From: Escherichia coli
Lineage (GTDB): Bacteria; Pseudomonadota; Gammaproteobacteria; Enterobacterales; Enterobacteriaceae
Length of the DNA stretch: 755 bases
Assembly: GCF_003334385.1 (NCBI RefSeq)
Contig: NZ_QOWN01000146.1
Reading direction: 5' to 3' (one strand)
The notes below the pieces were generated by a model, which ran no database searches, was not told where the DNA came from, and saw only the letters and a list, made by a program, of their open reading frames with translations. The translations under genes were made by a program, and so were the position numbers. Shown here one piece after another: positions 1 to 755 of this stretch. Position 1 is the first letter of the stretch; the number at the start of each line of letters is the position of its first letter.

Positions 1-167
1 CACCGGGGTTTACCGCGTTAACGGAGCGCGGCGTTGTCCCCTCATGGTCGCTGGTCCGGTGCGATGGTGGAAGAAACCGGACGATGTGTTACCTCGCAAG
101 CTCTGTTATGTCATGTGTCTGATTTGTGATTTAAGTCGGATAATTGTCGTTGCCATTAAACAGAGGA

Positions 168-198
168 TTGATGACCGACAGGGTGGCATTGTTAGAAT
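168..198 (+). promoter_or_regulatory. Candidate sigma70 promoter for the lipoprotein gene: extended -10 TGtTAGAAT (190-198) with a weak -35 TTGATG (168-173)
   Basis: TG at 190-191, one nt, then TAGAAT at 193-198 (5/6 to TATAAT) fits the extended -10 pattern TGnTATAAT. TTGATG at 168-173 matches TTGACA at 4/6 but the spacer is 19 bp, which is suboptimal. The predicted transcription start near 205 would leave a roughly 20-26 nt leader before ATG 225/231. Pattern-based only; other weak -10-like hexamers exist (GATAAT 138-143). Confidence 0.3.
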
Positions 199-210
199 AA
201 GACTTATTCT
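194..210. promoter_or_regulatory. Perfect 17-bp palindrome AGAATAAG-A-CTTATTCT overlapping the candidate -10 and transcription start; possible operator for a dimeric regulator
   Basis: Arms 194-201 (AGAATAAG) and 203-210 (CTTATTCT) are exact reverse complements around a single central A at 202. The element overlaps TAGAAT (193-198) and the predicted start site, the usual position for a repressor operator. The matching regulator is unknown. Confidence 0.3.
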
Positions 211-230
211 TATCTGTGCCGGGAATGAAA

Positions 231-284
231 ATGAAAAGAAATCTTCCGTTAATTATTTTGTTGTCTTCTCTGGTTATGGGCTGT
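231..284 (+). other. Predicted lipoprotein signal peptide and lipobox (signal peptidase II type), ending at the lipidated Cys codon
   Basis: Translated N-terminus M-K-R-N then LPLIILLSSLV then M-G-C. Position -3 is V and -1 is G, matching the lipobox consensus; -2 is M, which is atypical but tolerated. Cys codon TGT is at 282-284. If the start is 225 the peptide gains two residues (MKMKRN...). Confidence 0.6.
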
Positions 285-557
285 ACGCAACATAAAACAG
301 ATATGCCCCGACAGTTGGTTAAGGCATTACCACAATATCCGGCCTATGCAGCGGCAAATTATATAAAGGGACGGGTTGATGTGAAGTTTGATATTGGTGC
401 TGATGGTACTGTCACCCGAATTGAGTTTATCCGTTCAGAGCCGCACCATTTGTTTGATGAGCAGGTTGTAAAGGCGATGGCAAAATGGCGATTTGAGAAG
501 GACAGGCCGTGTAAAGGCGTGAAGAAAACGTTTATCTTTAGTCCTTCTGCACCCTGA
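231..557 (+). CDS. Small lipoprotein with a TonB C-terminal-like domain (stand-alone TonB_C paralogue)
   Basis: Frame is open 216..557 with TGA stop at 555-557. Candidate starts are GTG 216, ATG 225 and ATG 231; ATG 231 is preferred because the GGGA/GGA at 221-224 sits about 6 nt upstream, while 225 and 216 lack a usable Shine-Dalgarno. The N-terminus MKRNLPLIILLSSLVMGC has a basic n-region, a hydrophobic core and a lipobox-like VMGC with Cys at 282-284; Thr at +2 means no Asp inner-membrane retention signal. Residues from PQYPAYAAANYIKGRVDVKFDIGADGTVTRIEFIRSEPHHLFDEQVVKAMAKWRFEKDRPCKGVKKTFIF (about 330..554) align gaplessly by eye to the E. coli TonB C-terminal domain as I recall it, sharing PQYPA, G-V-VKFD, DG-V, AM--WR-E and P--G. 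GC is about 43%. Confidence 0.8.
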   Translation: MKRNLPLIILLSSLVMGCTQHKTDMPRQLVKALPQYPAYAAANYIKGRVDVKFDIGADGTVTRIEFIRSEPHHLFDEQVVKAMAKWRFEKDRPCKGVKKTFIFSPSAP

Positions 558-710
558 TTATTTCATCAGAAATTAATTATCACTCTGTTGTTATTCTGTA
601 CATCCCGGCAGGGTAAGTCTTGTTCCGTCGGATATGAAGATGAAATATTGTTGGAGGACAGTGGGTACCTGCTCCTGTAACCGAACGTTCATTTCTCGTT
701 ATTTTTCATG

Positions 711-745
711 CTGGCCGGGCGCAGATGCGTTGCATCTGTTGCCAG
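711..745. repeat. Compound inverted repeat forming a stem-loop: outer stem CTGGC/GCCAG, inner stem CAGATGC/GCATCTG, 3-nt loop
   Basis: The inner perfect 7-bp stem pairs 722-728 with 732-738 around loop GTT (729-731); a G-U pair at 721/739 could extend it. The outer 5-bp stem pairs 711-715 with 741-745, separated by an asymmetric internal loop (716-721 against 739-740). No U-tract follows on either strand, so it is not a canonical intrinsic terminator. Confidence 0.4.
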
Positions 746-755
746 CCTTCTCCTG

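Follow-up and report, generated by a model that had tools for sequence, protein, structure and literature searches.

The perfect inverted repeat at positions 194-210 of the window, which is the whole stretch of 755 nucleotides of Escherichia coli DNA that was analysed, is probably a fortuitous and lineage-specific repeat that lies over the likely promoter of a prophage moron, and probably not a repressor site. The explanation that we favour on balance, based on the comparison of related sequences, is that the segment 187-203 would be an extended -10 promoter giving a cargo gene expression in the lysogen, and that the palindrome would be the by-product of a small lineage-specific indel.

The window is 100% identical to DNA of E. 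coli DETEC-S792, where it forms part of the late region of a lambdoid prophage of 57 kb that is inserted in ompW. It is preceded by the genes of the Q antiterminator, tRNAs, holin, lysozyme, an Rz-like lysis protein and a small ORF, and is followed by an HNH endonuclease and then by the terminase genes. A related prophage with an empty site (L002) has positions 1-83 of the window joined directly to positions 679-755, with flanks that are otherwise identical, and carries one copy of AACCGGACG (its positions 4075-4083) for both window junctions, 75-83 and 679-687. Given that L002 joins the two segments with a single junction repeat, positions 84-678 represent a cargo cassette of 595 bp. No terminal inverted repeats were seen by eye at the ends of the cassette, and a transposon-like insertion that left the 9-nt junction repeat and a microhomology-mediated gain or loss are equally possible. 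The features of the window are located as follows.

1..83, plus strand: conserved late-region segment that flanks the cargo slot on its upstream side and recurs in many lambdoid prophages
75..83, no strand: left junction repeat AACCGGACG, to which the single L002 copy aligns
84..678, plus strand: cargo cassette (moron) of 595 bp with the promoter region, the gene of the lipoprotein with a TonB C-terminal domain (TonB-CTD) and a 3' tail, absent from L002
171..176, plus strand: -35-like hexamer ATGACC, weak and polymorphic (positions 174 and 175 vary)
187..203, plus strand: invariant block CATTGTTAGAATAAGAC with the TG, the -10 and the left arm, apparently the constrained part
190..198, plus strand: candidate extended -10 TGTTAGAAT (TGn + TAGAAT), 9/12 with TG in the promoter scan, invariant in the lineage
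194..201, no strand: left arm of the palindrome, AGAATAAG, which overlaps the -10, is invariant in the lineage and is found in phage 21
202..202, no strand: dyad centre of the palindrome, A
203..210, no strand: right arm of the palindrome, CTTATTCT, lineage-specific, with variation at the background rate
205..206, plus strand: predicted transcription start, 7-8 nt after the -10
221..224, plus strand: Shine-Dalgarno-like GGGA, 6 nt upstream of the ATG, found by reading the sequence
231..557, plus strand: coding sequence of 108 aa with a lipoprotein signal (MKRNLPLIILLSSLVMG followed by C) and a TonB C-terminal domain, RefSeq WP_000828068.1 'TonB family protein'
569..587, no strand: Fur-like site GAAATTAATTATCACTCTG, 12 nt after the stop codon, 10.8 bits
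679..687, no strand: right junction repeat AACCGAACG, to which the same L002 copy aligns
689..755, minus strand: 3' part of a convergent YlcI/YnfO (DUF3950) gene (L001 annotation 9689-9889), outside the cassette and also present in L002

The segment 1-83 alone matches more than 1,000 E. coli genomes and is found in L002, L003, CP-933N and Sakai Sp10, with differing DNA after approximately position 80. What occupies this position or its neighbourhood varies between prophages: another small ORF lies at the junction in CP-933N of EDL933, and unrelated AT-rich DNA in Sakai Sp10; the interval from the endopeptidase to the terminase holds pchB in Sakai Sp11, and the one from Rz to the terminase holds bor in phage 21 and L089. 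Extra DNA is therefore found between genes that are adjacent in related phages, as seen from L002 and from the other cargos in CP-933N and Sakai Sp10, as expected of a moron. The window is a classic moron slot of an E. coli lambdoid prophage, and the palindrome is part of the cassette. Of 5,426 complete E. coli genomes, about 414 contain the full-length stretch, and the cassette is 99.7% identical in the phages JLK-2012 and Lys8385Vzw and in four Stx1a phages. In EDL933 (NZ_CP008957.1) it is located at 2,148,918-2,149,244 on the minus strand, with position 205 of the window at approximately 2,149,270. Start-site tables from Cappable-seq are available for EDL933 (PMC10469882), as is a dRNA-seq dataset for Sakai (PMC7547250). 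No terminator that closes the cassette was found in the window, and the fold of positions 545-700 is no better than that of shuffled sequences (z 0.06).

The earlier note had taken the downstream gene for that of a TonB-like lipoprotein, and this identification is well supported, the predicted product being of the outer-membrane type. The lipobox-like LSSLVMGC (LVMG followed by C), read directly from the sequence, closes the signal peptide, and the C-terminal domain of the product is matched in full by TIGR01352 (tonB_Cterm), with 54.6 bits versus a cut-off of 27.1, and also by PF03544. The domain shares 40% identity with residues 153-230 of host TonB, and the structure matches are TonB C-terminal domains (2GSK, 2GRX and 1U07, E about 1e-15), among them TonB fragments from crystals with BtuB and FhuA. 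Members of the family come almost exclusively from E. coli prophages, apart from one homologue of 40% identity in a Klebsiella phage. No PADLOC entry was found for the TonB-like lipoprotein, a literature search on the prophage TonB-like lipoprotein found nothing specific, and the PHROG label 'Rz-like spanin' seems to derive from the position of the gene. The same prophage also encodes a lipoprotein-anchored TolA C-terminal domain. Within the coding sequence, an antisense promoter-like site, TTCACA-16-TATAAT, is found at 358..385 on the minus strand with an 11/12 match, and its phage 21 counterpart (L004 2664-2637) has a 10/12 match with TG.

The palindrome itself is as the earlier note described it. 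The 17 bases at 194-210 form the exact 8-1-8 inverted repeat AGAATAAG-A-CTTATTCT, with arms that are 100% complementary, as confirmed directly in the sequence, and the repeat ends 20 nt upstream of the start codon of the lipoprotein gene. The dyad does not extend beyond 194-210, where the flanking pair 193/211 is T/T, and the outer stem GGCAT/GTGCC (185-189/216-220) was rejected as an extension, having a z of -1.72 and both sides polymorphic. How unusual the repeat is depends on the scale at which it is viewed. Perfect inverted repeats with arms of 8 nt are found in 0.3-1.5% of shuffles of the 120-nt leader, in line with the proposal that the palindrome is unlikely by chance in the leader, and in 2.3% (spacer 0-1) or 9.9% (spacer 0-10) of dinucleotide shuffles of the 755-nt window. 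Nonetheless, about 164 such palindromes (spacer 0-1) are expected by chance in a random genome of 5.4 Mb and, therefore, the palindrome is unusual locally and unremarkable at the scale of a genome scan. A second, degenerate copy of the promoter and palindrome at 605-645 was considered (local alignment score 23, p ~0.01) and rejected as chance or low complexity, given that an unrelated control segment scores equally. At the RNA level, the palindrome gives a hairpin of seven A-U pairs with -2.8 kcal/mol (z -1.05) and no U-run, and it was discarded as a hairpin or terminator; there was no Rfam match at E≤1 and no terminator-like site in the window.

The position of the palindrome relative to the promoter candidate was also correctly recognised beforehand. 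The promoter scan of the window gives a single sigma-70-like site on the plus strand, ATGACC-16-TGTTAGAAT, which spans 171-198 and overlaps the palindrome. It consists of the -35 ATGACC at 171-176, a spacer of 16 nt and the -10 TAGAAT at 193-198, preceded by TG at 190-191, and is located 33 nt before the ATG. The combination of TGn with five of the six -10 positions in TGTTAGAAT is that of an extended -10 element. Promoter-like matches of equal quality are common, with 2 in the window versus 1.5 expected in shuffles. Conservation was evaluated in a set of 85 copies of the window type (53 haplotypes) obtained from IMG/VR, phage records and genomes, which includes the 88%-identical variant L087. 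In these copies, none of the 17 sites of the block 187-203 segregates, versus 36 of 147 (0.245 per site) in the noncoding segment 84-230, and the most conserved noncoding stretch consists of TGTTAGAAT plus AAGAC (187-203). By comparison, segregating sites are found at two of the six positions of the -35, 7 of 13 in the spacer and 7 of 20 in the leader at 211-230. The -35 reads ATGGCC in 19 copies, ATGATC in 4 and ATGCCC in 1. The free variation of the -35 and the spacer is what would be expected of an extended -10 promoter that does not depend on the -35. Elsewhere in the cassette, the Fur-like site at 569-587 is kept in 81 of the 85 copies, and a score of this height is reached once in every 16 kb of E. 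coli DNA.

The same block stands out in a more distant comparison, with the type represented by phages 21, ev017, Perceval and the PhiR phages, whose protein is 72% identical. Upstream of the gene, phage 21 has an island, ATTGTCAGAATAAGAC, which is identical to the window at 15 of 16 positions (window 188-203), and the remaining upstream DNA is only 42-55% identical. The phage 21 version of the -10 is CAGAAT, with a C at -12, and is not accompanied by a recognisable -35, so the conserved block might have another purpose. Taken together, the single plus-strand match, the invariance among the 85 copies and the island in phage 21 indicate that the block 187-203 is most likely a candidate extended -10 sigma-70 promoter.

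The right arm of the palindrome behaves differently from the block. Two of its eight sites (203-210) segregate among the 85 copies, which corresponds to the background rate of 0.245 per site. The arm is intact in 79 of 85 copies, changed by 209 C>T in five (CTTATTTT) and by 204 T>G in one (CGTATTCT), so that the palindrome is broken in six copies; it is intact in the diverged L087 lineage. Over 187-230, L087 has one difference from the window versus approximately 3.5 expected from a background divergence of approximately 8% (P ~0.14), and its conservation was not taken as a sign of constraint given that it is not significant. The polymorphism test has little power because the lineage is young (95-100% identity), and with two variable sites expected and two observed, the result is still compatible with moderate constraint.

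In phage 21, the right arm is missing. There, AGAATAAGAC is followed by CCGTAGG (continuation CCGTAGGAATAAAAATG), and the window has approximately 13 nt more (TTATTCTTATCTG..., straight after AGAATAAGAC), which supply the right arm; no inverted repeat was found at the phage 21 promoter region. The Klebsiella homologue, which occupies the same slot, has a promoter-like site of its own approximately 33 nt before the ATG, with no palindrome over it. This phage was tried as an outgroup to polarise the indel and rejected, given that its upstream DNA is not alignable. The conservation of both half-sites in homologous promoters that would mark an operator is thus seen neither in phage 21, nor in Klebsiella, nor within the lineage. 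These observations are consistent with a constrained promoter half whose symmetric partner is not constrained. The right arm appears to carry no sign of selection and, for this reason, the dyad would most likely be a by-product of an indel or template switch rather than an operator.

According to the explanation favoured here, transcription would begin near 205-206 from an extended -10 sigma-70 promoter formed by the block CATTGTTAGAATAAGAC. This promoter of its own would allow the lipoprotein gene to be transcribed in the lysogen, and during lytic growth the gene would also be reached by read-through from the late promoter of the phage. The 8-1-8 palindrome results from the approximately 13 nucleotides that are specific to this lineage (TTATTCTTATCTG...), since the -10 sequence recurs among them in inverted form. 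This right arm may have arisen by a small indel, possibly through template switching with inverted copying of the -10.

A regulator that binds the palindrome would be expected to leave traces elsewhere, and the earlier note had proposed that further copies in the genome could define a regulon. This was not borne out in the DNA covered. Using the pattern AGAATAAGNCTTATTCT, a mismatch scan over the 75 kb of the prophage and its flanks found no site with up to three mismatches besides the palindrome itself, and the numbers of near-matches were 5 versus 2.3 in shuffles for up to four mismatches and 16 versus 16.8 for up to five. No similar site was found in the racR/cro immunity region. The scan for the exact pattern, which covered 298 Gb (one genome per species, approximately 100,000 species), gave 85 matches, a chance level, with approximately 70 expected for a self-complementary 16-base pattern. 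One of these (L119) is the cassette itself on a MAG contig, and the others are unrelated and mostly from low-GC organisms; no exact copy was found in any other enterobacterial context in these 298 Gb. The viral collection contains six unrelated palindrome sites, with a central C or G. The cassette contains no regulator gene. The identical palindrome is found in prophages of DETEC-S792, 86-24 and EDL933, and the repressors of the DETEC-S792 and 86-24 prophages have only a 33-aa HTH stretch in common. An operator of the CI/Cro type bound by the phage repressor was rejected, given that the immunity region has no related site and heteroimmune phages carry the identical palindrome.

The proposal that a dimeric regulator binds the palindrome and keeps the gene tightly repressed has to be weighed against this background. 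In its most general form, the palindrome would be the operator of a host-encoded dimeric repressor that occludes RNA polymerase at the -10/+1 region, with the gene silent until a specific signal. The geometry is suitable: the dyad symmetry is exact and centred on 202, covering about -11 to +6, where repressors act, so the argument that a bound regulator could occlude the polymerase stands as geometry, although actual binding is unsupported. The dyad is also improbable within the leader, it is kept in 79 of 85 copies and in L087, and control would make sense given that a free TonB C-terminal domain is plausibly harmful to iron uptake. Nonetheless, the right arm that such a repressor would need is found neither in the paralogous promoter of phage 21 nor in the Klebsiella homologue, and its sites segregate in the lineage as often as the background. 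No second site exists in the 75 kb nor an exact copy in another enterobacterial context, the cassette lacks a regulator gene, heteroimmune phages share the site, and the half-site could not be assigned to any known E. coli factor. A host repressor acting here is thus unlikely, and the tight repression proposed earlier is not supported. One named candidate for such a factor is Fur, for which the palindrome region would be a weak box and the gene would be derepressed under iron limitation like host tonB. Positions 196-214 match GATAATGATAATCATTATC at 13 of 19 positions, versus 12 of 19 for the Fur box of host tonB (local-shuffle p 0.023), so the earlier statement that the site does not resemble a Fur box was overstated as far as the consensus is concerned. 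A symmetrised 19-nt matrix, for which 15 intergenic regions with Fur binding in ChIP-exo were used (located by Dataset 2 of PMC10164565), has its best register at 193-211, on the axis of the palindrome, with 7.9 bits (local-shuffle p 0.03). Each of the heptamers TTAGAAT and ATTCTTA is similar to a half-site of the ChIP-exo motif TGAnAATnATTcTCA (PMC10164565), and the same cassette has a stronger Fur-like site, with 10.8 bits, at 569-587. By the score, however, that statement is roughly right: true sites reach 12.1±2.7 bits in leave-one-out (range 6.9-17.4), and 13 of the 15 are above 7.9 bits. In 336 kb of E. coli DNA, a score of at least 7.9 turns up once every 3.1 kb, and 5.3% of AT-matched 90-nt windows contain one. 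Furthermore, the half-site-like heptamers are 7 nt apart and not 1, and nothing comparable is found in phage 21 (3.2 bits) or Klebsiella (0.9 bits). Sakai is one of the nine strains of the Fur ChIP-exo data, and its two examined prophages, Sp10 and Sp11, are without the cassette. The score is therefore marginal, corresponding to roughly a two-fold likelihood ratio favouring Fur, and regulation by Fur at the palindrome is considered improbable.

DeoR is a second named factor, proposed on the grounds that TGTTAGAATA is a DeoR half-operator, as claimed for the promoter of the prophage sRNA Esr055. Indeed, positions 190-197 are identical to the half-site TGTTAGAA, positions 190-199 to the first 10 nt of TGTTAGAA-TACTAACA, and the 8-mer TTAGAATA, which was the only such element in a promoter with DeoR-dependent expression (PMC5326754), is also present at 192-199 of the window. 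The full 16-bp operator was rejected: it matches at 11 of 16 positions (190-205), which 42% of shuffles equal (p 0.42), the inverted half at 207-214 matches at only 5 of 8 positions and is 9 nt too far, and the DeoR axis is not that of the palindrome. As a sequence, TGTTAGAAT is no more than an extended -10 close to the consensus, and overlap with their own -10 is likewise a feature of the deoP operators, so the resemblance probably reflects DeoR operators overlapping -10 elements of the TGnTAGAAT type; binding of DeoR is very improbable. The remaining alternative concerns the promoter half instead of the dyad. The gene might have no promoter of its own and be transcribed only as part of the Q-antiterminated late transcript, with 187-203 conserved for another reason (a recombination boundary, or a translation or processing signal) and the palindrome functionless. 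The gene lies on the strand of the late operon, downstream of Q, holin, lysozyme and Rz, the promoter-like matches occur at chance frequency, the weak -35 is polymorphic, the CAGAAT of phage 21 has no -35 with it, and no terminator closes the cassette, all of which would suit a passenger of the late transcript. Against it, the conserved block falls precisely on a TG-extended -10 at the canonical distance from the start codon, and the promoter-like site of the Klebsiella homologue is also located approximately 33 nt before the ATG. Furthermore, cargo genes of this slot such as lambda bor are classically expressed in the lysogen. For these reasons, the absence of a promoter is not regarded as likely, and the extended -10 promoter with an incidental inverted repeat is the explanation that we retain.

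As a regulatory element, the palindrome is of minor importance: what it lies on is most likely an additional moron promoter, in a kind of locus already known. Two methodological points can be taken from it: a short perfect dyad that overlaps a -10 in AT-rich sequence counts for little by itself, and the combination of a paralogue with population variation separates the promoter half from the incidental half. The cargo protein is more intriguing than the palindrome, as is its companion with the TolA domain. Approximately 8% of complete E. coli genomes, including EDL933 and E2348/69, as well as Stx1a phages, carry this uncharacterised TonB-CTD lipoprotein, and if it interferes with TonB-dependent uptake, the manner and timing of its expression become relevant. 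A more far-reaching possibility, which we consider improbable, is that the dyad would be a real operator (of Fur or another host factor) that gates a lipid-anchored TonB-CTD decoy acting on the TonB boxes of outer-membrane transporters. If true, the decoy would protect against TonB-dependent phages and colicins but impair iron uptake, a cost that would call for tight and condition-specific control; together with the TolA-domain lipoprotein, the phage may then disarm both import routes.

The comparison with known systems follows the same division between the two halves of the palindrome. Operators that overlap promoters, such as those of lambdoid CI/Cro, LexA, Fur and DeoR, likewise have a dyad over the -10 and +1, and the 17-bp 8-1-8 arrangement is that of lambdoid CI/Cro; the site found here differs in being single and isolated, common to heteroimmune phages and with one arm not conserved. 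The likeness to the Fur box (GATAATGATAATCATTATC; TGAnAATnATTcTCA, PMC10164565) is that of an AT-rich dyad over the -10, with 13 of 19 positions matched and the same axis, whereas the spacing of the half-sites differs and the 7.9 bits lie within the background range. With the DeoR operator (TGTTAGAA-TTCTAACA or -TACTAACA), the left half-site is identical, whereas the right one is missing at the required position, and the 11 of 16 positions matched are not above chance. The perfect dyad, with its second arm in an insertion of approximately 13 nt that is specific to the lineage and abuts the first arm, resembles the quasi-palindrome mutations produced by template switching; the origin that we infer for the right arm would be of this kind, with the indel being either a gain here or a loss in phage 21. 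The promoter half resembles extended -10 (TGn) sigma-70 promoters in having TGn plus five of the six -10 positions and a weak, variable -35, with a predicted start in this case, and the phage 21 version differs from these promoters by the C at -12.

Among lambdoid morons, lambda bor and lom are the closest parallels, as are the morons of HK97 and HK022, reportedly described by Juhala and Hendrix. The cassette differs from them in that no terminator was found, in its cargo, which is a TonB C-terminal domain and not of the Bor/Iss type, and in that its expression in the lysogen is a prediction. It shares with them the single extra gene between genes that are neighbours in related phages, in the slot from Rz to the terminase and, in addition, a promoter-like element of its own and an envelope lipoprotein as its product.

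The gene at window 231-557 encodes a protein in which a lipoprotein signal is joined to a full TonB C-terminal domain, and this domain is 40% identical to residues 153-230 of host TonB, the part that binds the TonB box. The gene is found in approximately 8% of complete E. coli genomes, with EDL933, E2348/69, and Stx1a phages among its carriers. The protein has no entry in PADLOC and is uncharacterised; speculatively, it could act as a decoy against TonB-dependent phage or colicin entry. PHROG 1267, which carries the label 'Rz-like spanin', is essentially the family of this protein (full-length match, E 7.7e-43). Given that a TonB_C domain is present and that separate Rz/Rz1 genes lie upstream, the evidence suggests that this label is a positional mis-annotation. 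The cassette, including the palindrome context, was also observed in contig L119 (JAEYNP010000146.1, 2,969 nt) of a metagenome-assembled genome whose only label is 'Proteobacteria bacterium'; this contig probably represents prophage DNA from E. coli that ended up in that bin.

Further features in the window, in the prophage that carries it (L001, in NZ_CP116067.1), and in other loci compared.
Window 64-129: small ORF MVEETG..., straddling the cassette junction; counterpart at 2355-2492 of the phage 21 locus (L004)
Window 75-83 and 679-687: 9-nt junction repeat, AACCGGACG / AACCGAACG, bounding the cassette
Window 358-385, minus strand: antisense promoter-like site TTCACA-16-TATAAT inside the coding sequence, near-consensus (11/12)
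Window 569-587: Fur-like site GAAATTAATTATCACTCTG, 12 nt 3' of the stop codon, 10.8 bits
L001 2244-2672 (NZ_CP116067.1 453000-453428): second lipoprotein of this prophage, with a TolA C-terminal domain
L001 ~5286-5304 (NZ_CP116067.1 456042): strong Fur-like site GAAAACAGTTCTCATTGTC, 14.2 bits
L190 8440-9060 and L194 26740-27120: further junction loci compared

The TolA-domain lipoprotein has the signal MYCRAVPVLVLILASLTTG|C and matches positions 297-386 of 387 of NF007065 (E 1.6e-29). The phage therefore has the C-terminal domains of both energy transducers of the envelope, TonB and TolA, each in lipid-anchored form. No palindrome-like site was found upstream of the TolA-domain gene.

The junction repeat occurs as a single copy in the empty site of a related prophage (L002 4075-4083), and may be read either as a target-site duplication or as microhomology. 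In CP-933N and Sakai Sp10, the same junction, after AAGAARCCGG, is occupied by other cargo, and the site has the appearance of a hot spot for moron recombination. The MVEETG... ORF shares its start with the annotated phage 21 gene CPT_21_72, but the two part in sequence after some 10 codons and also differ in length (21 aa in the window versus 45 aa in phage 21); the window ORF is unlikely to be a genuine gene.

The antisense promoter-like site has an equivalent in phage 21 (TTAACC-16-TATAAT with TG, L004 2637-2664). It falls in the best-conserved part of the gene, 351-410, with 87% identity between lineages, and for this reason coding constraint may explain it. The Fur-like site downstream of the gene outscores the palindrome, with a value inside the range seen for true Fur sites; E. 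coli DNA holds one match of this score per 16 kb, and the site is kept in 81 of the 85 copies compared. The stronger Fur-like site belongs to the late region of the prophage, with the SASA esterase gene on one side and the DUF1378/DUF826/holin genes on the other.

In the 88%-identical cassette variant (L087), eight of the 12 positions of a patch in the promoter spacer, equivalent to window 175-186, differ (CCGACAGGGTGG versus TCGGTAAAGCTT), while the flanking DNA is 2-10% different; the changes form one clustered replacement rather than point mutations scattered along the DNA. The 8-mer TTAGAATA, proposed as the DeoR site of the promoter of the Stx1-phage sRNA Esr055 (PMC5326754), is also present at window 192-199. 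Given that it overlaps a TAGAAT-type -10 both in the window and in the Esr055 promoter, what was assigned to DeoR at the latter may, here too, be part of a promoter.
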